A model generated the notes under the pieces. That model was not told the DNA's origin and ran no database searches. It saw only the letters and a program-made list of their open reading frames with translations. Source: Trichodesmium erythraeum IMS101 (lineage in GTDB: Bacteria > Cyanobacteriota > Cyanobacteriia > Cyanobacteriales > Microcoleaceae). Taken from it: DNA of 32,000 bases. This document shows, piece by piece, positions 8,004 through 26,491 of this stretch. The stretch's first letter is position 1, and each line of letters opens with the position of its first letter. The stretch spans positions 4,710,001-4,742,000 of the forward strand of contig NC_008312.1 in NCBI RefSeq assembly GCF_000014265.1, in the 5' to 3' direction. Made by a program: the position numbers and the translations under genes.

Positions 8004-8551
8004 GCAGCTAAATTGGATGTATTTTTCAAGTTTGAGACGACAAACACATATTGTGAATAAACTAGGGGTAATTTAATTTTAAAGACATTATATATAGAGA
8101 TCAGTAAATTAGATGTATTTGCCCTAATGGCTGCCCGAAAAGTTGAAATAAAAATCAACTAAAATTGGGGGGAGAAGGGGTTGGTTCTCGAAGCTAACTA
8201 ACTTCTTTTCTAGAAATGACGATGATTATTACTAACCGAAAAATCAATATTTTCTAAAAAAGTAGAATTATTTAAATCTTTGTCCGACAATAGTTTGGAG
8301 TATATTGTTGCCCTGTTATGAATTGAGCATATCATAGCATTTCAAAAAAGAATTTTATAAATAAGTTAAGTATTATAATCATGTCATAGTAGGCATTTTG
8401 AAAGTTAGTATTAGCAGGTAGTAAATAGCTACTGTGAATTTTTATGTTGTGCGTGAAGTTGATCCCGGCAAAAAAATCAATCAATTATTGGCTGGATATT
8501 TGCGCTGCTAATTAGCTAAATATTAGTCATTGAGAAAGATGGAATGAACTG

Positions 8552-8603
8552 AAAAAAAAAAGAGTAGGGAAAGTACCTGAGTTTGTTTCTCGTTTCCCTC
8601 ACT
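8552..8603 (-). terminator. Intrinsic-terminator-like hairpin plus U-run in ANTISENSE orientation (representative; recurs in every array spacer)
   Basis: The plus strand reads A10-g-AGTAGGGAAA-(20 nt)-TTTCCCTcACT. On the minus strand this is a 10-bp stem with one bulge, followed by c and a U8-10 tract. It recurs at about 9232-9281, 9910-9959 and in each later spacer. No T-run follows it on the plus strand. Confidence 0.35.
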
Positions 8604-8687
8604 TACTCAACACATAATTTACTCTAAAGTAGAAAAAGAAATAAGAAATTAATCGTACATAAAACATAAATTTCGGAGGTAATAAAG

Positions 8688-9199
8688 ATGGCTATTGCAA
8701 ATTTTTCTGTTCTCGGCAATATAGGTTCTTGGATGGGTTTTCCCGTTGTGGATCAAGTTGTGGATCAAATCAATTCCTTGAAAAAAGAAGTAAATTGTTT
8801 ATCTGAGGTTTCCACTTCTACTATCAATGGTAAAGTTACTTCTACTATAAATGGTAAAGTACAAGAAATAGAGTTTACACCAGAGGTTGAAATCCACGAA
8901 AACAATAATGGTATTGATTTAAGACTGGAAATACCAGGTTTAGAATTTCAAGGTTTAGGTCTACAAGTGAATGCTGAAAGAGTAGAAATTAAAGGAAAAA
9001 ATCGCCAAGACACTGAAGTAGAAGAACAAGATTAAGTTCGTTATGAATTTCATTATGGTGCTTTCCAACGCAGAATTTCTCTACCAGTTAGGGTTCAAAA
9101 TAACCTGGTAAAGGCTGACTATAAAGATAGTTTTTGCACATACATTTACCTAAAAGTGAAGCTGATAAAAATCAAGTTGTGAAGGTAAATGTTGGCTAA
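8688..9199 (+). pseudogene. Hsp20 family, type I copy 1: 115-aa ORF ended by in-frame TAA (9033-9035), with the C-terminal half still recognisable downstream
   Basis: GGAGG lies 8 nt upstream of the ATG. The ORF ends ...KGKNRQDTEVEEQD-TAA where intact copies read ...EEQD-TTG (L). Downstream the sequence continues in frame as VRYEFHYGAFQRRISLPVRVQNNLVKADYKD. A 1-nt deletion (gatagtttttgcaca versus gatggtattttgcat) then shifts the frame before the ancestral stop at 9197-9199. Confidence 0.85.
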
Positions 9200-9365
9200 A
9201 TATTAGTCATTGAGAATGATGGAATGAACTGAAAAAAAAGAGTAGGGAAAGTACCTGAGTTTGTTTCTCGTTTCCCTCACTTACTCAACACATAATTTAC
9301 TCTAAAGTAGAAAAAGAAATAAGAAATTAATCGTACATAAAACATAAATTTCGGAGGTAATAAAG

Positions 9366-9877
9366 ATGGCTATTGCAAATTTTTCTGTTCTCGGCAATAT
9401 AGGTTCTTTGATGGGTTTTCCTATTGTGGATCAAGTTGTGGATCAAATCAATTCCTTGAAAAAAGAAGTAAATTGTTTATCTGAGGTTTCCACTTCTACT
9501 ATCAATGGTAAAGTTACTTCTACTATAAATGGTAAAGTACAAGAAATAGAGTTTACACCAGAGGTTGAAATCCACGAAAACAATAATGGTATTGATTTAA
9601 GACTGGAAATACCAGGTTTAGAATTTCAAGGTTTAGGTCTACAAGTGAATGCTGAAAGAGTAGAAATTAAAGGAAAAAATCGCCAAGACACTGAAGTAGA
9701 AGAACAAGATTAAGTTCGTTATGAATTTCATTATGGTGCTTTCTAACAAAGAATTTCTCTACCAGTTAGAGCTCAAAATGACCAGATAAAGGCTGACTAT
9801 AAAGATGGTTTTTGCACATACATTTACCTAAAAGTGAAGCTGATAAAAATCAAGTTGTGAAGGTAAATGTTGGCTAA
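9366..9877 (+). pseudogene. Hsp20 family, type I copy 2 (same TAA allele, further decayed tail)
   Basis: The 115-aa ORF differs from copy 1 at 2 residues. It carries the same TAA at 9711-9713. The tail has a second stop (ggtgctttcTAAcaaaga) and the same 1-nt deletion. Confidence 0.85.
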
Positions 9878-10044
9878 ATATTAGTCATTGAGAATGATGG
9901 AATGAACTGAAAAAAAAGAGTAGGGAAAGTACCTGAGTTTGTTTCTCGTTTCCCTCACTTACTCAACACATAATTTACTCTAAAGTAGAAAAAGAAATAA
10001 GAAATTAATCGTACATAAAACATAAATTTCGGAGGTAATTAAAG

Positions 10045-10556
10045 ATGGCTATTGCAAATTTATCTGTTCTCGGCAATATAGGTTCTTGGATGGGTTTTCC
10101 TATTGTGGATCAAGTTGTGGATCAAATCAATTCCTTGAAAAAAGAAGTAAATTGTTTATCTGAGGTTTCCACTTCTACTATCAATGGTAAAGTTACTTCT
10201 ACTATAAATGGTAAAGTACAAGAAATAGAGTTTACACCAGAGGTTGAAATCCACGAAAACAATAATGGTATTGATTTAAGACTGGAAATACCAGGTTTAG
10301 ACTTTCAAGGTTTAGGTCTACAAGTGAATGCTGAAAGAGTAGAAATTAAAGGAAAAAATCGCCAAGACACTGAAGTAGAAGAACAAGATTAAGTTCGTTA
10401 TGAATTTCATTATGGTGCTTTCTAACAAAGAATTTCTCTACCAGTTAGAGCTCAAAATGACCAGGTAAAGGCTGACTATAAAGATGGTATTTTGCATATA
10501 TATTTACCTAAAAGTAAAGCTGATAAAATCAAGTGATGAAAGTCAATGTTGGCTAA
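10045..10556 (+). pseudogene. Hsp20 family, type I copy 3 (same TAA allele)
   Basis: The 115-aa ORF is identical to the ORF at 11367. TAA lies at 10390-10392. The tail has an extra TAA and indels near aaatcaagtgatgaaag. Confidence 0.85.
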
Positions 10557-10722
10557 ATATTAGTCATTGAGAAAGATGGAATGAACTGAAAAAAAAGAGT
10601 AGGGAAACTACCTGAGTTTGTTTCTCGTTTCCCTCACTTACTCAACACATAATTTACTCTAAAGTAAAAAGAGAAAGAAGAAATTAATCATACATAGAAC
10701 AAAATTTTCGGAGGTAATAAAT

Positions 10723-11199
10723 ATGGCTATTGTTAGTTTTCCTATGGTGGGGGATATAGATTCTTTTATGACTTTTCCTCTTGTGCGTAGAAACAATTCC
10801 TTGAAAAAAGAAATGAATTGTTTATCTGAGGTTTTCACTTCTGCTATAAATGGTAAAGCTAAAGAAATAGTATTTACACCAGCGGTGGAAATCTACGAAA
10901 ATAATGATGCTATTGATTTAAGGCTGGAAATACCAGGTTTAGAAGTTAAAGATTTAGATGTACAAGTGACTGCTGAAGCAGTAGAAATTAAAGGAAAACG
11001 TCGTCAAGAAACTGAAACGGAAGAACAAGACTTGGTTCGTTCTGAATTTCATTATGGTGCTTTCCAACGCAGAATTTCTCTACCAGTTAGAGTTCAAAAT
11101 AACCTGGTAAAGGCTGACTATAAAGATGGTATTTTGCATATACATTTACCTAAAAGTGAAGCTGATAAAAATCAAGTTGTGAAGGTCAATGTTGGCTAA
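10723..11199 (+). CDS. Hsp20/alpha-crystallin small heat-shock protein, type II (158 aa, intact)
   Basis: Complete ACD: FTPAVEIYENNDAIDLRLEIPGLEVKDLDVQVTAEAVEIKGKRRQE...LVRSEFHYGAFQRRISLPVRVQNNLVKADYKDGILHIHLPKSE. This matches the canonical sHSP pattern (PGv..eDi.V......l.I.G.r......ER.yG.F.R...LP..v....v.A.y.dGvL.i.lPK). GGAGG RBS present. Confidence 0.93.
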   Translation: MAIVSFPMVGDIDSFMTFPLVRRNNSLKKEMNCLSEVFTSAINGKAKEIVFTPAVEIYENNDAIDLRLEIPGLEVKDLDVQVTAEAVEIKGKRRQETETEEQDLVRSEFHYGAFQRRISLPVRVQNNLVKADYKDGILHIHLPKSEADKNQVVKVNVG

Positions 11200-11366
11200 A
11201 TATTAGTCATTGAGAATGATGGAATGAACTGAAAAAAAAGAGTAGGGAAACTACCTGAGTTTGTTTCTCGTTTCCCTCACTTACTCAACACATAATCTAC
11301 TCTAAAGTAGAAAAAGAAATAAGAAATTAATCGTACATAAAACATAAATTTCGGAGGTAATTAAAA

Positions 11367-11891
11367 ATGGCTATTGCAAATTTGTCTGTTCTCGGCAATA
11401 TAGGTTCTTGGATGGGTTTTCCTATTGTGGATCAAGTTGTGGATCAAATCAATTCCTTGAAAAAAGAAGTAAATTGTTTATCTGAGGTTTCCACTTCTAC
11501 TATCAATGGTAAAGTTACTTCTACTATAAATGGTAAAGTACAAGAAATAGAGTTTACACCAGAGGTTGAAATCCACGAAAACAATAATGGTATTGATTTA
11601 AGACTGGAAATACCAGGTTTAGACTTTCAAGGTTTAGGTCTACAAGTGAATGCTGAAAGAGTAGAAATTAAAGGAAAAAATCGCCAAGATACTGAAGTAG
11701 AAGAACAAGATTAAGTTCGTTATGAATTTCATTATGGTGTTTTCTAACAAAGAATTTCTCTACCAGTTAGAGCTCAAAATGACCAGGTAAAAGCTGACTA
11801 TAAAGATGGTATTTAAAGATGGTATTTTGCATATATATTTACCTAAAAGTGAAGCTGATAAAATCAAGTGATGAAAGTCAATGTTGGCTAA
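11367..11891 (+). pseudogene. Hsp20 family, type I copy 4 (same TAA allele, plus a 13-bp tandem duplication in the tail)
   Basis: The 115-aa ORF is 100% identical to copy 3. TAA lies at 11712-11714. The tail contains ctataaagatggtatttaaagatggtattttgc, a duplicated aaagatggtattt. Confidence 0.85.
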
Positions 11892-12058
11892 ATATTAGTC
11901 ATTGAGAATGATGGAATGAACTGAAAAAAAAAGAGTAGGGAAACTACCTGAGTTTGTTTCTCGTTTCCCTCACTTACTCAACACATAATTTACTCTAAAG
12001 TAAAAAGAGAAAGAAGAAATTAATCATACATATAACAAAATTTTCGGAGGTAATAAAT

Positions 12059-12535
12059 ATGGCTATTGTTAGTTTTCCTATGGTGGGCGATATAGACTCT
12101 TTTATGACTTTTCCTCTTGTGCGTAGAAACAATTCCTTGAAAAAAGAAATGAATTGTTTATCTGAGGTTTTCACTTCTGCTATAAATGGTAAAGCTAAAG
12201 AAATAGTATTTACACCAGCGGTGGAAATCTACGAAAATAATGATGCTATTGATTTAAGGCTGGAAATACCAGGTTTAGAAGTTAAAGATTTAGATGTACA
12301 AGTGACTGCTGAAGCATTAGAAATTAAAGGAAAACGTCGTCAAGAAACTGAAACACAAGAACAAAATTTGGTTCGTTCTGAATTTCATTATGGTGCTTTC
12401 CAACGCAGAATTTCTCTACCAGTTAGAGTTCAAAATAACCTGGTAAAGGCTGACTATAAAGATGGTATTTTGCATATACATTTACCTAAAAGTGAAGCTG
12501 ATAAAAATCAAGTTGTGAAGGTCAATGTTGGCTAA
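12059..12535 (+). CDS. Hsp20/alpha-crystallin small heat-shock protein, type II (158 aa, intact)
   Basis: Differs from the 10723 copy at 3 residues (V/L, E/Q, D/N). Same leader variant (gggaaaCtacc..., ...aaaattttcggaggtaataaat). Confidence 0.93.
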   Translation: MAIVSFPMVGDIDSFMTFPLVRRNNSLKKEMNCLSEVFTSAINGKAKEIVFTPAVEIYENNDAIDLRLEIPGLEVKDLDVQVTAEALEIKGKRRQETETQEQNLVRSEFHYGAFQRRISLPVRVQNNLVKADYKDGILHIHLPKSEADKNQVVKVNVG

Positions 12536-12703
12536 ATATTAGTCATTGAGAATGATGGAATGAACTGAAAAAAAAAGAGTAGGGAAACTACCTGAGTTTG
12601 TTTCTCGTTTCCCTCACTTACTCAACACATAATCTACTCTAAAGTAGAAAAAGAAATAAGAAATTAATCGTACATAAAACATAAATTTCGGAGGTAATTA
12701 AAA

Positions 12704-13204
12704 ATGGCTATTGCAAATTTGTCTGTTCTCGGCGATCTAGATTCTTGGATGGGTTTTCCTACTGTGGAGCAAATCAATTCCTTGAAAAAAGAAATCAACT
12801 ATTTATCTGAGGTTTCCACTTCTACTGTAAATGGTAAAGTTACTTCTATTATAAATGGTAAAGTCAAAGAAATAATGTTTACTCCAGCAGTCGAAATCCA
12901 CGAAAATAATGATGCTATTGATTTAAGGCTAGAAATACCAGGTTTAGAAGTTAAAGATTTAGATGTACAAGTGACTGCTGAAGCAGTAGAAATTAAAGGA
13001 AAACGTCGTCAAGAAACTGAAACACAAGAACAAAATTTGGTTCGTTCTGAATTTCATTATGGTGCTTTCCAACGCAGAATTTCTCTACCAGTTAGAGTTC
13101 AAAATAACCTGGTAAAGGCTGACTATAAAGATGGTATTTTGCATATACATTTACCTAAAAGTGAAGCTGATAAAAATCAAGTTGTGAAGGTCAATGTTGG
13201 CTAA
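12704..13204 (+). CDS. Hsp20/alpha-crystallin small heat-shock protein, chimeric type (166 aa, intact)
   Basis: The N-terminus resembles type I (MAIANLSVLG..., TSTVNGKVTSIINGKV duplication, type I leader). From about AVEIHENNDAIDLRL onward it is essentially type II and includes the full C-terminal half. Confidence 0.93.
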   Translation: MAIANLSVLGDLDSWMGFPTVEQINSLKKEINYLSEVSTSTVNGKVTSIINGKVKEIMFTPAVEIHENNDAIDLRLEIPGLEVKDLDVQVTAEAVEIKGKRRQETETQEQNLVRSEFHYGAFQRRISLPVRVQNNLVKADYKDGILHIHLPKSEADKNQVVKVNVG

Positions 13205-13631
13205 ATATTAGTCATTGAGAATGATGGAATGAACTGAAAAAAAAAGAGTAGGGAAACTACCTGAGTTTGTTTCTCGTTTCCCTCTCTTACTCAATACTAA
13301 ATCTAGTCTAAAGTAGAAGGAGAAAACTCATCTGGGGTTTTCACTTCTACTATTTTTGGTAAAATCAAAGAAATAGCTTTGATACCAGGAAGTGTTGATA
13401 CCACTAAAGGTGAATTAAGATCTTTTTATGATTATTTTCTAGAGCACCGGAACTCTCGCCTATTCGGTTAAAATAAAATCTGATGGGTTAATTTCCGGGG
13501 CATCTTCTAAGGTAGCTATTTTGCCACCACCGCCAAAACCCGGTAGCCGACCTTGGCATTGTAATATAAGTCTCCGGTGGCGCGATCGTAAACGATGTCT
13601 GCTACAGATCTCGAAACGGCTTTTTTGTTTT

Positions 13632-14542
13632 TACAGCAATTTTCAGGTAAATAGACCACAGTGGTTGAACCAACCGAAGGCATCATCTTCAGTAATGAAA
13701 TTTACAACTTCAGCCATTGCTTGCTCCAGTGATTCATGGGTACGTGCCTCACAAGAACGGAGAAATTGCTTCAGTTTCGACCAACAAAGCTCAATAGGTG
13801 ATAAATCAGTAGTAAGACCTGGGTTTAATAAAGTGATAAATACCTCAGTATTTGTACTTCCTGGTACAGTCATCGACGCAATCAGTCCATCCAGGTTCAA
13901 AGCACCAATCAAAGAAACATTTCCACCCTTGCTACCTGGGATACTACCAACAGCTCGTTCCCCATCTACGGCTCTGGCGAATAAACGAGACATTGACAAA
14001 TTTATTCGGGCTTCATCAACAAATACTAAATTTCTGACATCAATTTTATCTAACCAACGTCGATAGTCATGTCTTAACTCTTGGACTCTTGGGGTATCTT
14101 GCTCACTGGCATAAAGACTTTTTTTTTGCACCGTAAGCCTAATTTTTCTACGGCGCGATGCATTGTGGAGATACTCACCCTAATTCCTGTTGTTTCTTGA
14201 TAGCGAGCGCATAATTCTCTCAGCAATAAGTCATTTTTCTCCTCTACCAGAGATTTGATGATGTTGAGATTATCATAGGAAATTATTGGCTGCTGATATC
14301 CTCCACGTCGTTTGGCCTCAATTTGTCCAAGAGTGACGATAATGACGCAACAAATTTTCGTACCATAGACAAGCTGACCTTAAATCTTTCAGCCAACTGA
14401 CGTTGAGAGCCTTCTTTTGCTTCCCAAGCTATAATCACGCGACGACGCAAATCACTCGAATACGATACTGGCATTAAATTTAACAATTACATCAAACCCA
14501 TTTTACCGCACTTTGTGGTTCAATTACCTGAAAAGTGCTGTA
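13632..14542 (-). mobile_element. IS630-family element, type 2, copy A (911 bp, internally deleted)
   Basis: Ends are TAcagcaattttcaggtaaatagaccaca... and ...tgtggttcaattacctgaaaagtgctgTA, an imperfect IR of about 30 bp flanked by TA. It is 121 bp shorter than copy C (1032 bp). Confidence 0.85.
13643..14486 (-). pseudogene. IS630 type 2 transposase, fragmented and deleted (copy A)
   Basis: The HTH part is MPVSYSSDLRRRVIIAWEAKEGSQRQLAERFKVSLSMV. This is followed by frame changes, including at an A-run (T10, 14119-14128, on the plus strand; T9 in copies B and C). The 162-aa ORF reads ...VFVDEARINLSM...NPGLTT-DLSPIELCWSKLKQF and lacks the DNL...PPYSP block that is present, though frameshifted, in copies B and C. 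Confidence 0.8.
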
Positions 14543-14658: not shown

Positions 14659-16017
14659 TTAAGAAATAATAGACTTTGTGCTGCTTACCTTTCTGTCTGT
14701 ATTTTTTTGATAATCCCAAATCTGTTTCCCAATAAGACCAATACCTGCAATAGCAACAACTGCACCACCTGTAGAAATAGCAGAAACAATAGCAGCTCCA
14801 GCAACTACTCCACCACCACCTGCAGCTAATGTGCCACCTCCTAACCAAGCTAACGCAGCATTTGTAGCTGCTGCTCCACTTAAAGAACCAATCGCCGTCC
14901 CTGTGGAAGCTGCTGCCCCTAAAGTAGATGCAACAGTAACTACTGTACCTGCTGAAGCTCCTGCACAAACCATTGCACCTCCGGTAACCATTGCTGCTGT
15001 TGGTATTGCTTTTTGAATAATAAATTTTTGCCATTCTGGGGAAATTTCCACCCAAACTGCTTGAATAACTGAAGCACTTAATAAAACTGCTCCTAATGGT
15101 GGATATATAATTACAACAGTTGTGATTATACCTGAAGTGAATGCTTTTAGTCCTACCTGATTAATCGCTTCTTCAAGAGTCATTTTATCCTGTAAAACTT
15201 GAATCAGAACAGGAATAACTGATTCTGCCAACGTAAAGCCCAAAGCTGCAAAAGCATTTCCTCCCATTAACCTTTGAATAACTTTGATAGCAGTACCTCG
15301 AATAAAACCACTTTTTAAACCATTTATAGCTACTTCAAGGAATTTTTCCAGTTCAGCTTTATCAAGCGCTTGCTCTCCTCTACAATAAGCTGCAATAGTT
15401 TTGATAGACCGGAGCAAAATATTAATAGTAGTGTTAATTGACGCACCTGTAATGCCAGCTCCTCCTACTTCTCCTACTAGTGCAGCACCTTCCATTAAGT
15501 TAGCAGCTAAATATGGATTTTCAGCAACCCAAACAGCAAAGCCTTTACTAATAGGAAAACTTTTTATCCCATCTACGTTAATTATAGTTTTTGTTCCATA
15601 TAAACTAGGATTTTCTGAATTAGTAAGTATATCACTTTTGTAGTGTCCAGAATTAACTTGTTTTTCTACATATTCAGAGGTACCTACTTTAGCTTGAATT
15701 TCTTCTATAACCTTTCCTACTTTTTCAACATAAATATCAGGGGCATACTTAGTTCCATCTGCGGGGATTTGATAAGCACGAGTTTCAAAGCCTTGTAGTG
15801 AAGCTCTAATATTGAAACCAATTGTTTGTAAATGTTCAAAGGCAAAACCAAATGCTTGTGGATTTTCAGTAACTTGATGATTATAGCTGTTAATTAGGCC
15901 TGAACCTGGTTCTAGTATTTTTGCAGCTCCGTCTTGAACAGCTTCTACTACTGCTGATATGTTTCTAGTTGTTTCAGGAATTAGACCATTGATAATAGAA
16001 TCAATTTTATCTTTCAT
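14659..16017 (-). CDS. Hypothetical 452-aa protein: soluble N-domain (possible PD-(D/E)xK / Mrr-like fold) plus C-terminal multi-helix Gly/Ala-zipper membrane region
   Basis: This is the long 473-aa ORF in the track. The likely start is the internal ATG at 16017 (MKDKIDSIINGL). The N-domain reads ...FGFAFEHLQTIGFN...(33 aa)...APDIYVEKVGKVIEEIQAKVG, an E...D...QxK spacing like Mrr-type nuclease cores. The C-terminal approximately 230 aa are hydrophobic, with runs such as GGAMVCAGASAGTVVTVASTLGAAASTGTAIGSLSGAAATNAALAWLGGGTLAAGGGGVVAGAAIVSAISTGGAVVAIAGIGLIG. Confidence 0.7.
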   Translation of the reverse strand: MKDKIDSIINGLIPETTRNISAVVEAVQDGAAKILEPGSGLINSYNHQVTENPQAFGFAFEHLQTIGFNIRASLQGFETRAYQIPADGTKYAPDIYVEKVGKVIEEIQAKVGTSEYVEKQVNSGHYKSDILTNSENPSLYGTKTIINVDGIKSFPISKGFAVWVAENPYLAANLMEGAALVGEVGGAGITGASINTTINILLRSIKTIAAYCRGEQALDKAELEKFLEVAINGLKSGFIRGTAIKVIQRLMGGNAFAALGFTLAESVIPVLIQVLQDKMTLEEAINQVGLKAFTSGIITTVVIIYPPLGAVLLSASVIQAVWVEISPEWQKFIIQKAIPTAAMVTGGAMVCAGASAGTVVTVASTLGAAASTGTAIGSLSGAAATNAALAWLGGGTLAAGGGGVVAGAAIVSAISTGGAVVAIAGIGLIGKQIWDYQKNTDRKVSSTKSIIS

Positions 16018-16161
16018 TATAATTTTAGAAAATAGAGAGCTTTTCTTGTTATTATAAAACACATAATTGTTTGCAAACAACAGAATATTTACTGAATTCC
16101 GATATTTTTTTTATATTCAGATTGCTTTCATTGTTCGCCGACTAAGAAGCGAGTACAATCT

Positions 16162-16524
16162 CTATAATAACATTATAATTGCCCACTCGACACAATATTC
16201 TACTGCTTTGTACAAAAGTTCTTTAAGAGCTACTTCAGCTATAATTTTTGAGTATTTAAGCCAAAATGAGTCTGAAGAATATTGAGAAAGCGCCCAATCA
16301 ATACAATAGTCTACTGTTTTGTATAAAAAGTCTTTCGTATTTTTTTTAAATGAAGTTTCTAACAGCATAGGCCATAAATCCTTAGATTTATTTGCAGCAA
16401 ATCTTGACAGAGAAACAGCAGATTTTGATAGAGACTCGGTAGACTTTGATAGAGATTTGGCAGATTCTAATGAATACCTAAAAGTTTTTCCACTAAAAGA
16501 TTCTAAGCCTTTCCAGAATGACAT
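16162..16524 (-). CDS. Hypothetical 120-aa protein with internal repeats
   Basis: Co-oriented and 59 bp downstream of the 103-aa gene. It contains heptad repeats SLESAKS/LSKSTES/LSKSAVS encoded by approximately 21-bp tandem repeats. It also has a duplicated motif: FLYKTVDYCIDWA and LLYKAVEYCVEWA. Confidence 0.5.
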   Translation of the reverse strand: MSFWKGLESFSGKTFRYSLESAKSLSKSTESLSKSAVSLSRFAANKSKDLWPMLLETSFKKNTKDFLYKTVDYCIDWALSQYSSDSFWLKYSKIIAEVALKELLYKAVEYCVEWAIIMLL

Positions 16525-16583
16525 TTTTCAATATTAAAATTTTTTAATGATATTTATTTAACAAGATTTATTATTTCTCAATA

Positions 16584-16895
16584 TTAATTAGAAGAATCTT
16601 CTAAGTTTATTTTTTCTGTTACTTCTTGTGTTGTTTTATTATATTCTTCTTCTACTTCTTCTAATATATCTTCAAAATTTTTGTCACTTGTAGGTTTGTA
16701 ATAAGCAATATCTGCTAAGGCTTGCCCCAATTTGCCTTCACGAATTTTTTGCATCATTATTTTTTTGTTTTCTTCCTTTGACAGGTTAGGATTAAAATAA
16801 CCTTTTAGAGCGTCAAGAAACTTTTCTGGACTTAAGGAAGGTACTACAGTATTTAGTATTTCAAATGCTATTGTAGTTGGATTATTAAGATTCAT
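16584..16895 (-). CDS. Hypothetical small acidic protein (103 aa), first gene of the minus-strand cassette
   Basis: ATG is preceded by GGAG at -12 to -9 (ggagtcaaatctATG). The C-terminus is acidic (EDILEEVEEEYNKTTQEVTEKINLEDSS). I recognise no family. Confidence 0.6.
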   Translation of the reverse strand: MNLNNPTTIAFEILNTVVPSLSPEKFLDALKGYFNPNLSKEENKKIMMQKIREGKLGQALADIAYYKPTSDKNFEDILEEVEEEYNKTTQEVTEKINLEDSSN

Positions 16896-17502: not shown

Positions 17503-18135
17503 TTGACAAAAAGACTAAAAATAACAGATCAATTGAATATTACACCGAGTACTTATTTTTTACAAGTGTTTTCACATAGGAACTCTCCTATTAGAAAAAC
17601 CGACGGATGGTTCACTTGTAAAAATTATCTAACCGACGATTTACTAATATCCCTCTGGAATTCCCCGACAGACATTATCGGCGTTAGATTTGGCCCTAAA
17701 ACCAAATACTGTCTGTTAGACATTGACATAGACTCCCCCCATCATCCCCGAAACTCAAATAATCTAAGAAATATCCTCGGTTGTCTTGAAGATGTTGGCC
17801 TAATAGACCCCGTTCCGATCCAATCCTCCGACTCCGGCTGCCTATATATTTATTACTTCTTACCTGAATTAGTTCCAACCTTTGGGCTAGCCAGTCTATT
17901 ATCTAATACCTTAATCTCTGCCGGGTTCGACATAAAAAAAGGCCATTTAGAGATATTTCCAAACCCTAAAACATATATTGATACTGAAAATCATAGGGAA
18001 TATTCCAAATATAATGGCCATCAGAGATATTGTTATCAGAAACATCAGAAGAAGCTAATGAGTACTTGTTTGATTTAAAAGAGAGGCAAGGAAAAAGTAA
18101 ATATGGGAAATTAACACTATGATCGGCAACAGATT
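17503..18135 (+). pseudogene. Decayed primase-polymerase (AEP)-like or replication-protein-like gene
   Basis: The 191-aa ORF (TTG start) contains KYCLLDIDIDSPHH (DxD-type motif) and PIQSSDSGCLYIYYFLPE, which resembles the sGG.H.yf motif of AEP/prim-pol N-domains but has substitutions. The end of the ORF looks out of frame. A better-looking continuation (WPSEILLSETSEEANEYLFDLKERQGKSKYGKLTL*) lies in another frame, which implies a frameshift. Confidence 0.4.
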
Positions 18136-19188
18136 CCACAACTGACCATTACAAAAGGTTTGGCTTCGCTGGAATATATGAAATATAGGTGCAACAGTAA
18201 AACTTAGTTGGGTTTTGAGTTGCTTCCGCAGGAATTGAAAATACTTTTCACTTGGTTGATAGGGCAACTTATCAACCTTATTTTTTTTAGGAGGAAATAT
18301 GTCAACTTGTATTGTTTACTCTGACGGGATAAACCCAAGGACAAACGCTTGGGAAGTAATAGAGAATTTGTTAGTTGAACTCATGAAAAACAACGAGCAA
18401 ATAATTTTATTTAACAGAAATTCATTAGATCAGTTCACTCAATTTTATCTTACAGCAATTTTCAGGTAAATAGACCACAGTGGTTGAACCAACCGAAGGC
18501 ATCATCTTCAGTAATGAAATTTACAACTTCAGCCATTGCTTGCTCCAGTGATTCATGGGTACGTGCCTCACAAGAACGGAGAAATTGCTTCAGTTTCGAC
18601 CAACAAAGCTCACACTTGTGATAAATCAGGAGAGTAAGGGGGCAAAAACTTGACTTGAGCACCGACGGACTCAATGGCAACTCTGACACGTTCAGCATGA
18701 TGAACCTTGAGATTATCCATTACCACGATTGCCCCTTGCCACAACTGAGGTAGTAAGACCTGGGTTTAATAAAGTGATAAATACCTCAGTATTTGTACTT
18801 CCTGGTACATTCATCGACGCAATCAGTCCATCCAGGTTCAAAGCACCAATCAAAGAAACATTTCCACCCTTGCTACCTGGGATACTACCAACAGCTCGTT
18901 CCCCATCTACGGCTCTGGCGAATAAACAAGACATTGACAAATTTATTCGGGCTTCATCAACAAATACTAAATTTCTGACATCAATTTTATCTAACCAACG
19001 TCGATAGTCATGTCTTAACTCTTGGACTCTTGGGGTATCTTGCTCACTGGCATAAAGACTTTTTTTTTGCACCGTAAGCCTAATTTTTCTACGGCGCGAT
19101 GCATGGTGGAGATACTCACCCTAATTCCTGTTGTTTCTTGATAGCGAGCGCATAATTCTCTCAGCAATAAGTCATTTTTCTCCTCTAC

Positions 19189-19540
19189 CGGGACTTTAGT
19201 GAAAAAATAGTAAAAAAAAGGGTATAATGTATACCTGATATGTATTTTACGTTAATTACTGGCCTGGGAAAAGTTTGATGAAAGAAACAACTTCAGTGGC
19301 CATGCCCTCTTGTTTCCATCGATGGTGCGATCGCTTTAACAATGTCTTTAAAACAAAAGCCCAAAAAACAGGGTTTAGGGAATATATAGGAGGATTACTC
19401 TTGAGAAAGCGATCGAAAAAACTTGTCTCAAATTGCCAACAACACTGTAGGTCACACGTACCACAAATTACGGCATTTTCTAGTTCGAGCAAATTGGTCT
19501 GTAGATGCTGTGAATGAGCGTCGTCTTCAAGTAATGTGGG
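19189..19540 (+). mobile_element. IS701-like element, 5' fragment (first approximately 352 bp)
   Basis: It starts with the terminal repeat CGGGACTTTAGTG and appeared identical to the first approximately 352 bp of the complete copies wherever I compared them by eye. It ends abruptly at ...gtaatgtggg. The left flank is CTAC. Confidence 0.85.
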
Positions 19541-19698
19541 GGTAGTCCTGTATATGTAGTGATAAAATTACAGTGAAGCGATCGCTTCATTATAATGATT
19601 AATGAAATACCAAATAGCTCCTAGATGGTTTTCTAGCTTTTTAGAAAAGGATAAAGTCTTTCTGACCAACCGAGAAATTCTTTGACGCAAAGTATTAT
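19541..19698 (-). mobile_element. IS1-family element, terminal 158-bp fragment
   Basis: Minus-strand translation gives NTLRQRISRLVRKTLSFSKKLENHLGAIWYFINHYNEAIASL*. This parallels the C-terminus of E. coli IS1 InsB (…[39 protein letters not shown]). The putative end repeat ggtagtcctgtatatgtagtgat lies at 19541. Confidence 0.7.
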
Positions 19699-21074
19699 CG
19701 GGACTTTAGTGAAAAAATAGTAAAAAAAAGGGTATAATGTATACCTGATATGTATTTTACGTTAATTACTGGCCTGGGAAAAGTTTGATGAAAGAAACAA
19801 CTTCAGTGGCCATGCCCTCTTGTTTCCATCGATGGTGCGATCGCTTTAACAATGTCTTTAAAACAAAAGCCCAAAAAACAGGGTTTAGGGAATATATAGG
19901 AGGATTACTCTTGAGAAAGCGATCGAAAAAACTTGTCTCAAATTGCCAACAACACTGTAGGTCACACGTACCACAAATTACGGCATTTTCTAGTTCGAGC
20001 AAATTGGTCTGTAGATGCTGTGAATGAGCGTCGTCTTCAAGTAATGTGGGAACGTCGCCAAACAAAACCTTCTCGATCCTATTGCTTTAATTATAGACGA
20101 TTCAGGCCACAGAAAAAGTGGTAATTTTACTGCAGGAGTAGGGCGGCAATATATAGGAGAAATAGGAAAAACAGATAATGGTGTAGTCGTGGTGACAACT
20201 CATCTTTATGATGGAGTTAAAAGTCTACCTTTAGACATAGCTTTGTATCAGAAAGCTGATTCTTTTCCAAAAGGAAAAAAAGACCCAGAATTTGTCAAGA
20301 AACCAGACGAGTGCAATGTCTCTAGTAGATCAATGTTTGTCCAGAGGACACCAACCAGAAATTGTGTTAATTGAAATTTGGCTATGGTAACAATACATCA
20401 TTCTTAAATCAACTAGAGAAAAGAAGTTTAACTTATATAGGAGGATTAGCTAAAAATCGAAAAGTCATCATTAAAAAACAAGATGACATTAAAGAGGAAA
20501 TTAGATTAGACAAGCTGGCAGAAAGTATACCTCAGAAAGCTTTCAACTTAGTTCAACTAAGTACAAAAAATGCTAGAGAAGTTTGGGTAGCTACATTAGA
20601 AGTAGAAATATCTAGGATGTCAGGTCAAAAAACTATAGCTATCGTTATGAATGCTAAAAGTTTTTCTGAGGCCACTGATATTAACTATTATATCACTAAT
20701 AGAGAAGACAAATATGTAACTCCTGAGTGGATATATTCTACTTATTCTCAAAGAAATTGGGTGGAAGTTTTCTACAGGGAAGCCAAAGGATGGTTAGGAT
20801 TAAGAGAATATCAAGTCAGAGATAAAATCAGCCTTAAAAGGCATTTTATTTTAGTATTTTGTGCTTATACATTTATTATCTGGCATCAGTTAACAGGAGG
20901 TATAAGAAGGCGTTGGGCTAACAAACCATTAAATACGTTTACTGATACTTTAGAAGCATTTCGTACCGCAATATCTTATCGTTTTGTTGAGTGGTTAGAT
21001 GAAAACATCGACGTATTTACCGCTCATAAAGAGAGTTTAGGGTTTGTTTGGGCTTGAAATTTGCTAAAGTCCCG
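19699..21074 (+). mobile_element. IS701-like (IS4 superfamily) element, complete copy 1 (1376 bp)
   Basis: Terminal repeats are CGGGACTTTAGTGAAA... and ...TTTGCTAAAGTCCCG. The right flank CTAC matches the left flank of the 5' fragment at 19185-19188, a 4-bp target duplication spanning the composite. Size and the 4-bp duplication fit the IS701 family. Confidence 0.85.
19785..21057 (+). pseudogene. IS701-like transposase broken into at least 5 frame segments
   Basis: Track ORFs 19785..20027, 19933..20124, 20189..20374 and 20371..21057, plus my reading of intervening frames: ...LIIDDSGHRKSGNFTAGVGRQYIGEIGKTDNGVVVVTTHLYDGVKSLPLD..., AMSLVDQCLSRGHQPEIVLI, FGYGNNTSFLNQLEKRSLTYIGGLAKNRKV. Together these form one transposase only if about 4 single-nucleotide frameshifts are bypassed. 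Confidence 0.8.
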
Positions 21075-21691: not shown

Positions 21692-24034
21692 ATGAATAAT
21701 GAAACTGATACTCCTGTTAATACCGACAATTATTTATTAAGAAGCGTACATACAAACAATTTCCCTAAAATTTTAGATCAGCTAGGCATATCTTTAGTTG
21801 TTTCTACTTATCAAGCAGGTAAATTAATTGTATTGCGTGCCGATAATGGAGTAATTAATACTCACTTTCGAGCCTTTAAGAAACCTATGGGATTAGCAGT
21901 AACTAACGAAAAAATTGCTCTGGGAACTGCTTATAAAATTTGGGATTTTCGTAACGTTCCAGCAGTAGCAGAGAAAATAGAACCCCAAGGGAAATATGAT
22001 GCTTGTTATTTACCAAGAAATATTCATATAACTGGAGATATTGATATCCACGAAATGGCTTGGGTGAAAGATGAATTATGGTTTATTAATACTCGTTTTT
22101 CTTGCCTTTGTACTCTCGGTCATCCTAATAGTTTTGTGCCCAGATGGCGACCTCCTTTTGTCACTGGATATGACTTAACAGACCGGTGTCATTTAAATGG
22201 ATTTTGTTTAAAAAATGACCTACCAAAATATGTCACAGCTTTAGGAGAAACTGATACTGCTGCTGGTTGGAGAAAGAATAAAGCTAATGGGGGAATATTA
22301 ATAGATATAGAAACAAATGAAGTATTAATTCGGAACTTATCTATGCCTCATTCTCCTAGATGGTATCAAGAACAATTATGGTTATTAGAGTCTGGTAATG
22401 GTAGTCTGGCAAAAGTTGATTTAAACCAGAGAAAATTACGAACAATTGCTAAATTACCAGGGTTTACTCGCGGTATAGATTTTTGGGGAAATTTAGCATT
22501 TATTGGTTTGTCTCAAGTTCGAGAAACTGCTGTTTTTACGGGTATGCCTATTACTGAACTTCAAGAAAGAATTTGTGGGGTTTGGGTGGTAAATATTTTA
22601 ACTGGAGAAACTATCGCTTTTTTAAGATTTGAAGCTGGAGTTCAAGAAATTTTTTCTGTGGCAGTTTTGCCTAATATTCGCTTCCCAGAAATTATTGAAT
22701 GGGATGAAAATTTATTAGCAAATTCCTATGTTTTACCTGATGAAGCTTTAGCAGAAACAATCAAAACAACTGTAGAAATAGCTATGGCAGAAACTCATTT
22801 ACTTAAAGGAAATAAATTATATCAAAAAGGTGAATTAGTAGAAGCGATCGCTGCATATCAAGAATGTTTGAAGTTACAACCAGATTTGACAATAGCGAAA
22901 TATAATTTGGGAGTTGCTTTAGGAGATAATCAACAATATGAAGCAGCAATTAATGTTTTAGAACAGGTAATTAATACAGAACCAGATAATGCCGATGTTC
23001 AAAATAGTATTGCTTATGCTTATAGTCAAAAAGGTGAATTACACAAAGCAATTAAACATTACGAAAAAGCAATTTATCTCAACGGTAATTTTGCCAAAGC
23101 ACATTTTAATTTAGGCATAACTTTGTTAAAAAATGGAGATTTAAAACGAGGATTTGCAGAATGTGAATGGCGCTGGCAAACAGGACAATTTACACCCTTT
23201 CAATGTCCTCATCCACGATGGAAAGGGGAAGATATTAGCAATAAAATTTTATTAATTCATACTGAGCAAGGAGCAGGAGATGCTATTCAATTTATCCGTT
23301 ATGTTCCTTTAGCAGCAAAACTTTGTCAAGGTATTATATTGGTCTGTCTACCAGAGTTAATTCCTCTATTTAAAAATATCCCAGAGATTGATAAATTAAT
23401 GCCACCAGGAGAACTAAAATTATCAGAGTTTGATATCTATGTACCCTTAATGAGTTTACCCTATATTTTCGGCACAACTTTAGAAACAATTCCTGCCAAT
23501 ATTCCCTATCTTCAATCTACAAATAGCAACCCCATAAATCTTACTAATACTCAATATAAAGTAGGCATTGTTTGGAGTGGTAGTTCTACTCATAAAAATG
23601 ATGGTAATCGTTCTTGCAAAATCACAGACTTTTTACCTATTTTACAGGTACCAGGAGTCAAATTTTATAGTCTACAAAAAGGAGAAAATAGGCAAGAATT
23701 AACTCAAGTTCCCAGTAATATTCAGATAGAAGATTTAAGTTATCAGTTAAACAATTATGCTGATACAGCAGCAGTAATAGAGCAACTAGATTTAGTAATT
23801 ACTGTTGATACTTCTGTGGCACATTTAGCAGGAGCATTAGGTAAAAATGTATGGAATTTATTATGTTTTAATCCGGACTGGCGTTGGTTACAAGAAGTTG
23901 AAGATACTCTTTGGTATCCAACCATGAAATTATTCCGTCAGTCTCAGTCAAGAAAGTGGCAAGAAGTTATTGAAAAAGTTCAGGAACATTTGTGGAAAAT
24001 TATCACAGGAAACATGATTATTAGTAATAAGTAA
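21692..24034 (+). CDS. Fusion protein: TIGR03032-family N-domain + TPR repeats + GT9-like (heptosyltransferase-fold) C-domain
   Basis: 780 aa. The N-terminal approximately 340 aa (SVHTNNFPKILDQLGISLVVSTYQAGKLIVLRA..., DIHEMAW...ELWFINTRFSCLCTL, RWRPPFVT...DRCHLNG, MPHSPRWY...LWLLESG) match what I recall of TIGR03032 proteins. The middle has TPR repeats (AIAAYQECLKLQPD..., AIKHYEKAIYLNGNFAKAHFNLG). The C-terminus (LLIHTEQGAGDAIQFIRYVPL..., VGIVWSGS..., LVITVDTSVAHLAGALGKNVW) resembles GT9-like domains commonly fused to TPRs. Confidence 0.85.
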   Translation: MNNETDTPVNTDNYLLRSVHTNNFPKILDQLGISLVVSTYQAGKLIVLRADNGVINTHFRAFKKPMGLAVTNEKIALGTAYKIWDFRNVPAVAEKIEPQGKYDACYLPRNIHITGDIDIHEMAWVKDELWFINTRFSCLCTLGHPNSFVPRWRPPFVTGYDLTDRCHLNGFCLKNDLPKYVTALGETDTAAGWRKNKANGGILIDIETNEVLIRNLSMPHSPRWYQEQLWLLESGNGSLAKVDLNQRKLRTIAKLPGFTRGIDFWGNLAFIGLSQVRETAVFTGMPITELQERICGVWVVNILTGETIAFLRFEAGVQEIFSVAVLPNIRFPEIIEWDENLLANSYVLPDEALAETIKTTVEIAMAETHLLKGNKLYQKGELVEAIAAYQECLKLQPDLTIAKYNLGVALGDNQQYEAAINVLEQVINTEPDNADVQNSIAYAYSQKGELHKAIKHYEKAIYLNGNFAKAHFNLGITLLKNGDLKRGFAECEWRWQTGQFTPFQCPHPRWKGEDISNKILLIHTEQGAGDAIQFIRYVPLAAKLCQGIILVCLPELIPLFKNIPEIDKLMPPGELKLSEFDIYVPLMSLPYIFGTTLETIPANIPYLQSTNSNPINLTNTQYKVGIVWSGSSTHKNDGNRSCKITDFLPILQVPGVKFYSLQKGENRQELTQVPSNIQIEDLSYQLNNYADTAAVIEQLDLVITVDTSVAHLAGALGKNVWNLLCFNPDWRWLQEVEDTLWYPTMKLFRQSQSRKWQEVIEKVQEHLWKIITGNMIISNK

Positions 24035-25115
24035 AACTTTGACTAAGCTATAAATTTAAGTCTTATGCACTCAAATAAGAAACCGGGTTTATTACTCTAA
24101 TTATTATTTTTCACTATCACAAAATTTTGTCTATCAACCTAGTTTTTGCTTAAGCCCTAATATTATAAGTTTATAAGTGAAGTATGAAGTATTTTACAAA
24201 TATAATATTTATTAATGATTTAATTTTAATTTATTAATATTTAATATTAATTTTATTTATAATTAATAATAATAAATAGTATTAAAAACCCTAAGTTTTT
24301 ATAAGGTTATATCTATTTTGGCAAAAACTATAGATATTTATTAGCATTATTATATTTAAGTAAATTTAACTGCTAATATAAAGTCAAGTTTACTGCTGAT
24401 AAAAAAATAAACTTTGCTAATTTTTTCTATGAATTTTATTTAATTTTGATTGTCTAACTATTAACTGAAAAACATATAATCTTTTGTTAGGTCTAAGTTT
24501 TATAGCAAGGTTTGAAAAATGAAAAATGTCAAAAAATAATGCTTGATATTTGAGTAAAAATACTTACGAAAAAATATTACTTCTAACATTTTTATTCTCA
24601 GTAATTGTTGATAAGTATTTTGTATTTTGGTTACTCAAATAGCTACCCAAGAGTTATTGTCTTGATCCAGGCTTAGACGAAGTCCGTGGAATTTCGATAA
24701 TGCATCGTGGTAGAAAACTTTTATACCACATTGGGAGATATCCCCAAAGCTGGTTAAACCTTGCTATATGTTTTTAACAAATGTCAGTATTCACAGTATT
24801 GGGAAAAATTTATTCTTATTGGATATAGTGGCATTGAATTAGTAGTAACCTGATTAAAATTAACAGATGAATTAGTCTAAGTAAGAATTCACTCTATTTG
24901 CCTAGCCGTAATTTTTAATCGCTTCGGTAGAGGGTAGTAGTGAGTAGGTAAGGATGTTGAATAGAATTTTTGTAACCAGTAAGAAATAAATTTACTCCAC
25001 CTACTTTTATTTGGGTTTTATTTATAGGTAAAAAAGTGGAAATTACTCAAGCGATCGCCCTAACTCCTGAGCTCCTTCCTCAACCCCGACTTATTTATAC
25101 TGAGTCTAGTATTAA

Positions 25116-26491
25116 CGGGACTTTAGTGAAAAAATAGTAAAAAAAAGGGTATAATGTATACCTGATATGTATTTTACGTTAATTACTGGCCTGGGAAAAG
25201 TTTGATGAAAGAAACAACTTCAGTGGCCATGCCCTCTTGTTTCCATCGATGGTGCGATCGCTTTAACAATGTCTTTAAAACAAAAGCCCAAAAAACAGGG
25301 TTTAGGGAATATATAGGAGGATTACTCTTGAGAAAGCGATCGAAAAAACTTGTCTCAAATTGCCAACAACACTGTAGGTCACACGTACCACAAATTACGG
25401 CATTTTCTAGTTCGAGCAAATTGGTCTGTAGATGCTGTGAATGAGCGTCGTCTTCAAGTAATGTGGGAACGTCGCCAAACAAAACCTTCTCGATCCTATT
25501 GCTTTAATTATAGACGATTCAGGCCACAGAAAAAGTGGTAATTTTACTGCAGGAGTAGGGCGGCAATATATAGGAGAAATAGGAAAAACAGATAATGGTG
25601 TAGTCGTGGTGACAACTCATCTTTATGATGGAGTTAAAAGTCTACCTTTAGACATAGCTTTGTATCAGAAAGCTGATTCTTTTCCAAAAGGAAAAAAAGA
25701 CCCAGAATTTGTCAAGAAACCAGACGAGTGCAATGTCTCTAGTAGATCAATGTTTGTCCAGAGGACACCAACCAGAAATTGTGTTAATTGAAATTTGGCT
25801 ATGGTAACAATACATCATTCTTAAATCAACTAGAGAAAAGAAGTTTAACTTATATAGGAGGATTAGCTAAAAATCGAAAAGTCATCATTAAAAAACAAGA
25901 TGACATTAAAGAGGAAATTAGATTAGACAAGCTGGCAGAAAGTATACCTCAGAAAGCTTTCAACTTAGTTCAACTAAGTACAAAAAATGCTAGAGAAGTT
26001 TGGGTAGCTACATTAGAAGTAGAAATATCTAGGATGTCAGGTCAAAAAACTATAGCTATCGTTATGAATGCTAAAAGTTTTTCTGAGGCCACTGATATTA
26101 ACTATTATATCACTAATAGAGAAGACAAATATGTAACTCCTGAGTGGATATATTCTACTTATTCTCAAAGAAATTGGGTGGAAGTTTTCTACAGGGAAGC
26201 CAAAGGATGGTTAGGATTAAGAGAATATCAAGTCAGAGATAAAATCAGCCTTAAAAGGCATTTTATTTTAGTATTTTGTGCTTATACATTTATTATCTGG
26301 CATCAGTTAACAGGAGGTATAAGAAGGCGTTGGGCTAACAAACCATTAAATACGTTTACTGATACTTTAGAAGCATTTCGTACCGCAATATCTTATCGTT
26401 TTGTTGAGTGGTTAGATGAAAACATCGACGTATTTACCGCTCATAAAGAGAGTTTAGGGTTTGTTTGGGCTTGAAATTTGCTAAAGTCCCG
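25116..26491 (+). mobile_element. IS701-like element, complete copy 2 (1376 bp)
   Basis: Same termini as copy 1, with a 4-bp target duplication TTAA (25112-25115 and 26492-26495). All ORF-track fragments have amino-acid sequences identical to copy 1. Confidence 0.9.
25202..26474 (+). pseudogene. IS701-like transposase, same multi-frameshift allele as copy 1
   Basis: ORFs 25202..25444, 25350..25541, 25606..25791 and 25788..26474 are identical in sequence to those of copy 1. Confidence 0.8.

Follow-up and report, generated by a model that had tools for sequence, protein, structure and literature searches.

We analysed a window of 32,000 nucleotides (nt) from the genome of Trichodesmium erythraeum IMS101 and, within it, three minus-strand genes at positions 14659–16895 that a first-pass annotation had read as a candidate three-gene cassette of the toxin or defence type. 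The largest of these genes encodes a protein of 452 amino acids (aa) which, judged by its homologies, is a natural fusion of the core of one protein family (family A) with the glycine zipper of another (family B), the tail of A and the LRAT domain of B having been lost. The A core (residues 1–340) and the B zipper (residues 330–443) were joined in the Trichodesmium lineage by in-frame deletion or recombination; the fusion had previously been overlooked, and its two modules lie on two adjacent genes in other cyanobacteria. This architecture is solid, and a role in defence is put forward as a hypothesis: at about even odds (a probability of roughly 0.5), the protein is a membrane-embedded, PD-(D/E)xK-like, self-contained conflict effector fused from a two-gene A+B module.

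The search for homologues of the 452-aa protein covered 5.8 billion proteins. Family A comprises proteins of ~390 aa from Oscillatoriales-type cyanobacteria that cover window residues 1–340 at 60–67% identity and end in an acidic tail (PWDLLGSSAASSA...EMQALQDELDxLLE, also PWDLLGSS...EMQxLQDELDxLLE); the window protein lacks this tail and carries the zipper instead. Residues Y211, C212 and E215 of the AYCRGE motif are invariant in the A-family core, the window protein included. Family B proteins (~275–340 aa) consist of an LRAT domain (PF04970, H...NCEHW) followed by a glycine zipper and a tail, and their zipper is 73–77% identical to window residues 330–443 (P0072, P0077 and P0101), with the signature GASAGTVVT...AATNAALAWLGGG...GGAVVAIAG common to both over about 100 residues. 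At the junction the A and B homologies overlap by 10 residues (KFIIQKAIPTA), and it is the succession of these two stretches of homology that marks the window protein as an A core joined to a B zipper. No LRAT remnant was found anywhere in the window, where tblastn with B proteins matched only through their residues ~105–215 (i.e. the zipper), and the window protein gave no Pfam LRAT match.

Among 185,579 species genomes, 28 loci with a family member were collected, and in 10 of these a B gene lies directly downstream of an A gene on the same strand (Capilliphycus, Lusitaniella, Lyngbya, Microcoleaceae, Prochloraceae and Leptothoe genomes). Compared with these uncharacterised pairs (e.g. Capilliphycus salinus, loci L001 and L017; Lyngbya sp. 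PCC 8106, L015), the A core and the B zipper of the window protein are homologous, but the window holds one gene rather than two and lacks the acidic A tail, the B LRAT domain (H...NCEHW) and the long B tail. The same fusion is present at loci L004 (P0002) and L005 (P0003), the latter keeping the long B tail, and its reading frame is intact in all three lineages, which lie 15–36% apart at the protein level. Ratios of non-synonymous to synonymous substitution (dN/dS, Nei–Gojobori method) between the window gene and the L004 and L005 genes, i.e. among the three window-type genes, were 0.24–0.32 overall and 0.15–0.24 in the zipper, the most constrained part. Purifying selection thus maintains the fusion as a functional gene. 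Copies of the 452-aa protein that are 100% identical occur in marine metagenomes.

Other arrangements of the same parts were also found. A core, partial zipper and B tail are fused at five Lyngbya/Limnospira-group loci, the part corresponding to residues 186–336 stands alone as proteins of 221–240 aa (L034–L038), and the copy of Okeania SIO2F4 (L011) is frameshifted and split into two open reading frames (ORFs). Protein P0068 (791 aa, JGI metagenome) displays the opposite order, with a PPPDE/LRAT-type domain, a linker resembling the acidic A tail (GGGGSS...LQSNLDELL) and then the A core, an order suggestive of a functional interaction between the A tail and the thiol-enzyme domain.

Members of the PD-(D/E)xK superfamily share an alpha-beta-beta-beta-alpha-beta core with E on the first helix, D at the start of the second strand and (D/E/Q)xK on the third. 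The first-pass annotation had recognised the motifs FAFEHL, PDIYV and IQAKVG in the N-terminal domain (N-domain) of the 452-aa protein, and these do lie at residues 58–63, 93–97 and 107–112 respectively. Across an alignment of 53 N-domain sequences with 21–65% identity to the window protein (alignment A2), E61, N69, D94, K110 and Y126 are invariant, and G57, F68 and Q108 are at least 90% conserved. Motif loss within family A is restricted to divergent paralogues, P0069 and P0070 losing D94 and K110 together and P0036, P0057 and P0066 losing K110 only. The domain is rare: a profile search of 1.84 billion representatives recovered only 107 clusters, among them proteins of ~500 aa that match just the segment of residues ~36–165.

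AlphaFold2 modelled the N-domain from A2 with a predicted local distance difference test score (pLDDT) of 95.3 and a predicted template-modelling score of 0.90. The model contains a helix (31–50, carrying the E), three strands (56–59; 71–75, with the D at its start; 78–85, with the QxK) and a second helix (90–98), giving the order alpha-beta-beta-beta-alpha. Foldseek against the PDB returned nothing significant (best match E = 0.16, template-modelling score ~0.3), the top of the list being made up mostly of restriction-endonuclease-fold proteins, all below significance (EcoT38I, 3dnx, DdmD, 3ijm, SwaI, Hjc, Can2, VRR-NUC, EcoRV, NucC and a Cas4-family protein). Against BFVD there was one significant match, to part of A0A2H4UU33 (E = 1.9e-5, template-modelling score 0.62, 22% identity), which is a J-domain protein of 1002 aa from Bodo saltans virus and is itself uncharacterised; VRR-NUC proteins, resolvases and restriction endonucleases came next, with E values of 0.05–1. 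The A0A2H4UU33 match places the N-domain in proteins of eukaryotic viruses as well.

Sequence-level searches with the same domain gave little. A Pfam scan of the 53 N-domain sequences revealed no recurrent family and left the window protein blank, profile searches of PDB sequences with A2 and with a second alignment of 33 sequences (A1) gave nothing relevant at E values up to 10, and P0003 gave a weak match to the PADLOC model REase_II (E = 0.006) across the D...QxK segment. A full-length AlphaFold2 model built on A1 reached a pLDDT of 48, with the N-domain and the zipper both below 50, and Foldseek returned only noise for it.

E61, D94 and Q108-x-K110 agree with the corresponding residues of Mrr-type and other PD-(D/E)xK nucleases in their order, their spacing and the secondary-structure elements on which they are predicted to lie, and the QxK variant fits the Mrr-like configuration. 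The window domain differs from those nucleases in that its partner is a membrane region instead of a DNA-recognition domain and in lacking a significant match to any of them. The Mrr-type reading of the first-pass annotation is thus supported by conservation, by the predicted placement of its residues and by lists rich in restriction-endonuclease folds, but not by any significant family or structure match; likewise, the modelling that it had suggested as a check produced a confident model with the expected core order but no close PDB neighbour. We consider the earlier motif-level assignment probably right at the level of the predicted fold.

The C-terminal part of the protein had been described as hydrophobic and ending in a small-xxx-small zipper, a description confirmed by both composition and homology. 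Residues 337–430 form a stretch of 94 residues devoid of any charge, 66% of which are G, A, S or T and which contains 27 small-xxx-small pairs; further hydrophobic segments lie at residues 254–275 and 293–326. Residues ~200–310 of the middle domain are modelled at a pLDDT of 70–91 within the otherwise poor full-length model. The zipper matches PADLOC profile PDC-M09A (E = 1e-19; residues 324–442 on profile positions 83–197 of 282), and the match of B proteins to the same profile spans both the zipper and their tail (E values down to 1e-23). That tail is not repetitive, so the PDC-M09A match reflects homology, and its explanation by mere composition was rejected.

PDC-M09 is a two-gene phage-defence candidate (FAM_02775>>FAM_02807) proposed through 'guilt-by-embedding', being embedded in BREX, DISARM or type I restriction–modification loci (bioRxiv 10.1101/2024.01.29.577857). 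The zipper of the window protein is homologous to PDC-M09A, but it matches only part of the profile, a search for a PDC-M09B partner among the proteins scanned was negative and the gene lies outside any BREX, DISARM or restriction–modification locus. Neither PDC-M09B nor any other PADLOC model matched the 103-aa, 120-aa or A-family proteins, the other ORFs of the window not having been scanned. Glycine zippers are also membrane-active in toxins that have been characterised: those of the type VII secretion system LXG effectors TelE (PMC10434224) and EsxX (PMC12744356) are needed for toxicity or membrane depolarisation, and that of the type VI secretion system DNase Tde1 is needed for translocation (PMC10240207). 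The window protein has a hydrophobic segment rich in small-xxx-small pairs in common with these effectors and, like Tde1, combines a nuclease-like domain with a zipper. It differs in that no sequence homology to them was shown, secretion domains are absent and its zipper is much longer (~95 residues) and lies C-terminal to a large helical domain. Literature searches on the locus tags, on PDC-M09 or on glycine zippers together with LRAT found nothing.

The 452-aa protein is thus a one-chain counterpart of a two-gene module of filamentous cyanobacteria, which consists of a gene A, encoding an N-terminal PD-(D/E)xK-like domain, a hydrophobic helical domain and an acidic tail, and directly downstream a gene B, encoding an LRAT/NlpC-P60-type thiol enzyme domain, a glycine zipper of ~95 residues and a tail. 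In the effector reading that we favour, the uncharged zipper of the fused protein, with the hydrophobic hairpin that precedes it, would embed and probably oligomerise in the cytoplasmic membrane, and the nuclease-like head would stay cytoplasmic at the membrane surface, because the protein has no signal peptide. The head may bind or cut nucleic acid through E61, D94, Q108 and K110, and activation would damage DNA and/or the membrane, the likeliest role being that of an effector of the abortive-infection/defence type or one that is otherwise toxic. The zipper itself would be an interchangeable membrane-targeting or membrane-perturbing module that can sit under a nuclease-like head or a lipid- or peptide-acting (LRAT) head, and the replacement of the LRAT head by a nuclease-like head on the same zipper is of evolutionary interest in its own right.

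The genomic contexts of relatives lean towards conflict systems. P0138 (L045, 6001–7536), a full-length A-like protein, is encoded next to one end of a P2-like prophage, about 1 kb away from its Ogr/Delta, portal and terminase genes. A remote branch of ~500-aa proteins, in which a nuclease-like domain precedes a helical region and a C-terminus that is hydrophobic, rich in Gly and weakly matched by C19orf12/Gly-zipper models, is found in VWA-X-AAA operons on Klebsiella/Enterobacter IncF plasmids and in X-383aa-AAA operons in (gut) metagenomes. The Klebsiella operon lies beside a PDC-M62 (Septu-like) candidate, and its AAA protein matches IetA. These remote homologues have the E-D-QxK domain, the helical region and the Gly-rich C-terminus in common with the window protein, but they share only 21–28% identity with it, carry an extra N-terminal extension of ~130 aa and are accompanied by AAA+/VWA genes that are absent from the window.

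Some details of these loci may be recorded here. P0138 has a repetitive KETA(A/T)NAA C-terminus and lies downstream of a gene for a DUF87 (HerA-like) ATPase. The X/AAA+ operons recur with either a VWA or a 383-aa protein (6194–10626 in L010, Klebsiella pneumoniae plasmid pB16KP0157-2; 642–4833 in L044), and the IetA-like classic AAA+ ATPase of Klebsiella carries a C-terminal biotin/lipoyl-like domain. The X-AAA operon may be a three-gene system not described before.

Several observations weigh against an effector. No significant sequence, profile or structure match connects the N-domain to any characterised nuclease (Pfam, PDB and Foldseek), so it is motif placement and the enrichment of the Foldseek lists that carry its predicted fold, and the zipper belongs to the poorly modelled part of the full-length prediction (pLDDT < 50). 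PDC-M09 is itself a candidate, matched only in its zipper-and-tail part and without a PDC-M09B partner, and the defence contexts come from distant relatives, each as a single or a few examples. Neighbour clustering over the 28 loci recovered no recurrent defence neighbour and no conserved third gene, and A genes of the Lyngbya/Capilliphycus group occupy conserved positions among housekeeping genes. The protein might instead be a housekeeping membrane protein of filamentous cyanobacteria, for example a membrane-tethered factor that binds or processes DNA or RNA, or else a protein associated with the envelope or the thylakoids, in which the nuclease-like domain would have a binding or regulatory function. 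We regard this as rather unlikely, even though the A genes of Lyngbya, Limnoraphis and Capilliphycus are fixed between HIT-like, ComM-like, ABC transporter and GUN4/SLH genes with no mobile or defence neighbours, a conserved third partner is lacking, and several paralogues per genome exist, some without K110 or D94. Such a role fits poorly with the patchy spread of the family (28 loci in the species genomes, 107 clusters among the representatives), with its frequent domain shuffling, fusion and truncation, including the frameshifted Okeania copy, with the presence of relatives on plasmids, next to a prophage and within a giant virus, or with a zipper common to the defence candidate PDC-M09A.

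An interbacterial toxin of the polymorphic type is improbable. Its zipper would carry the nuclease domain across the target membrane, a small neighbouring gene providing immunity, and both the Tde1 logic of nuclease plus glycine zipper and the toxicity of glycine-zipper C-termini in TelE and EsxX are in keeping with this, as are adjacent small ORFs with no assigned function. The protein, however, has no LXG, PAAR, Rhs, CdiA or other trafficking domain (Pfam, NCBIfam) and no signal peptide-like N-terminus; moreover, no small gene is conserved up- or downstream of any homologue, the neighbours differing in every lineage, and the small genes of the window lie upstream and are conserved independently, without the large gene. 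That the fusion is a non-functional deletion product, decaying like a pseudogene in a genome rich in insertion sequences (IS) and gene fragments, is scarcely credible: the surrounding DNA does contain truncated Hsp20 copies and, besides three IS630 copies, further transposase fragments, and the Okeania orthologue is split, but the intact frames, the dN/dS values with their most constrained zipper and the retention of all motif residues led us to reject it. Synteny also largely refutes the three-gene cassette of the toxin–antitoxin or abortive-infection type, which would have the 103-aa and 120-aa proteins regulate or neutralise the 452-aa effector and which now appears very improbable. Co-orientation and short gaps suggest it, and the layout is the same in contigs L007–L009, but these belong to the same species as the window (99–100% identity), constitute no independent evidence of synteny and are the only contigs in which all three genes occur together. 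The relatives of the large gene have other genes upstream, namely an M48/HtpX-like fragment and an unrelated 128-aa protein in L004 (85% identity) and an unrelated 117-aa protein in L005 (64% identity), and neither small protein was found at any of the 28 loci carrying an A-family member. A pair of 103-like and 120-like genes, in turn, is conserved in L039 and L043. In L039 (432–1123) a 103-like gene (63% identity) precedes a 120-like gene of 74 aa (55% identity); a gene on the opposite strand comes next, with no homologue of the 452-aa protein nearby. The proposed cassette was therefore not upheld, and a check for co-occurrence of homologues of all three proteins found no independent lineage that has them all; this absence of shared synteny argues that the window holds two independent units, the small-gene pair and the large gene, rather than one cassette.

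A further-reaching interpretation of the effector, which we advance tentatively and hold to be doubtful, is that the E-D-QxK domain defines an uncatalogued family of membrane-tethered PD-(D/E)xK effectors acting in antiviral defence or abortive infection, that the A plus LRAT-zipper pair is a new two-gene defence system of which the window protein is a single-chain fusion, and that the zipper is a portable insertion or pore module. Such a family would have few members, scattered over filamentous cyanobacteria, gut Firmicutes, enterobacterial plasmids, the end of a P2-like prophage and a giant virus. If this function is true, a new nuclease-like family and a modular membrane zipper would be added to the bacterial conflict effectors, with a first functional handle on PDC-M09 and on the LRAT-zipper proteins that are widespread in cyanobacteria, and the fusion would be a natural experiment on which parts of a two-gene system can be combined. 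Trichodesmium is an ecologically important nitrogen fixer in which few phage-defence genes are known, and the protein would be a candidate component of immunity or programmed cell death in this genus. Should it prove to be a housekeeping protein, it would still represent an uncharacterised family of conserved membrane proteins whose putative active site is sharply defined.

As regards the layout of the locus, the three genes are co-oriented on the minus strand, as previously claimed (Table 1), and separated by short gaps of 59 bp (103-aa/120-aa) and 144 bp (120-aa/452-aa). The ORF of the 452-aa gene extends mechanically to a TTG at 16080, whereas its homologues all start at the ATG at 16017. 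The good ribosome-binding site (RBS) noted for the 103-aa gene was also found (AGGAG, 7 nt 5' of its ATG), and the 120-aa and 452-aa genes have no obvious RBS upstream. None of the three proteins matches a named family, in agreement with the earlier annotation, Pfam, NCBIfam and PHROGs all being blank. A promoter and terminator scan of the locus remained at chance level and was uninformative on operon structure.

The 103-aa protein has five relatives with 62–98% identity, all from marine metagenomes, and relatives of the 120-aa protein, which is identical to Tery_3067, are confined to the level of Trichodesmium. Two copies of the motif LLYKAV(D/E)(Y/F)C(V/I)(D/E)W(A/V)I define the family of the 120-aa protein. 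The 74-aa relative in L039 keeps both LLYKAV.(F/Y)C.DW repeats and lacks the serine-rich SLSKS repeat that the Trichodesmium version has.

Table 1. Coordinates of the three genes, the parts of the 452-aa protein and the adjoining insertion-sequence remnant in the analysed window.
Feature	Coordinates	Strand	Basis or remarks
452-aa gene (P0001)	14659..16017	-	Fused A core and B zipper; ORF, homologue alignment to ATG
Residues 1–185, N-terminal helix and predicted PD-(D/E)xK-like domain	15463..16017	-	A2 alignment, AlphaFold2, Foldseek lists
E61 codon (FAFEHL), acidic residue of predicted helix alpha-1	15835..15837	-	Invariant in A2
D94 codon (PDIYV), start of predicted second strand	15736..15738	-	Invariant in A2
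Q108-A109-K110 codons (IQAKVG), QxK on predicted third strand	15688..15696	-	K110 invariant, Q108 at least 90% in A2
Residues 186–336, helical, partly hydrophobic middle domain	15010..15462	-	AYCRGE motif; uncharged 32-residue hairpin-like segment 292–323
Residues 337–435, glycine/alanine zipper membrane module, from B family	14713..15009	-	B identity, PADLOC match, composition
Residues 436–452 and stop, short basic C-terminal tail in place of long B tail	14659..14712	-	Alignment A1
120-aa orphan gene, Tery_3067	16162..16524	-	S-rich repeat and two LLYKAV(D/E)(Y/F)C(V/I)(D/E)W repeats
103-aa acidic orphan gene	16584..16895	-	AGGAG RBS; partner of 120-aa gene
IS630-type (DDE_3) remnant directly downstream of 452-aa gene	13631..14541	-	Pfam DDE_3; repeat families D6, D8, D9

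Mobile and repetitive DNA surrounds the locus. The IS630 copy reported beside it is indeed present as a DDE_3 remnant directly downstream of the 452-aa gene, and the label of a 'decayed primase-like gene' given to 17503–18078 could not be confirmed, this region having no Pfam or PHROGs match. IS630-type (DDE_3) copies or remnants occupy 13631–14541, 18450–19170 and 29240–29862 and are 99–100% identical over their shared parts, with broken reading frames in at least those at 13.6 kb and 18.5 kb. A tandem array of seven Hsp20/alpha-crystallin copies runs along the plus strand (8454–13325, period ~643–693 bp), three of them complete (158 aa at 10723, 158 aa at 12059 and 166 aa at 12704) and four being near-identical truncated copies (8688, 9366, 10045 and 11367) that end after 115 aa inside the alpha-crystallin domain. 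A duplicated unit of ~300 nt (D7; 19181–19990 and 25108–25407) and two identical 228-aa DDE_Tnp_1 transposase fragments (20371–21057 and 25788–26474) flank the gene for a 780-aa DUF4915 and TPR protein (21692–24034). Finally, a 189-aa ORF on the plus strand (30245–30814), probably a fragment, contains a Phage_integrase (tyrosine recombinase) catalytic domain.

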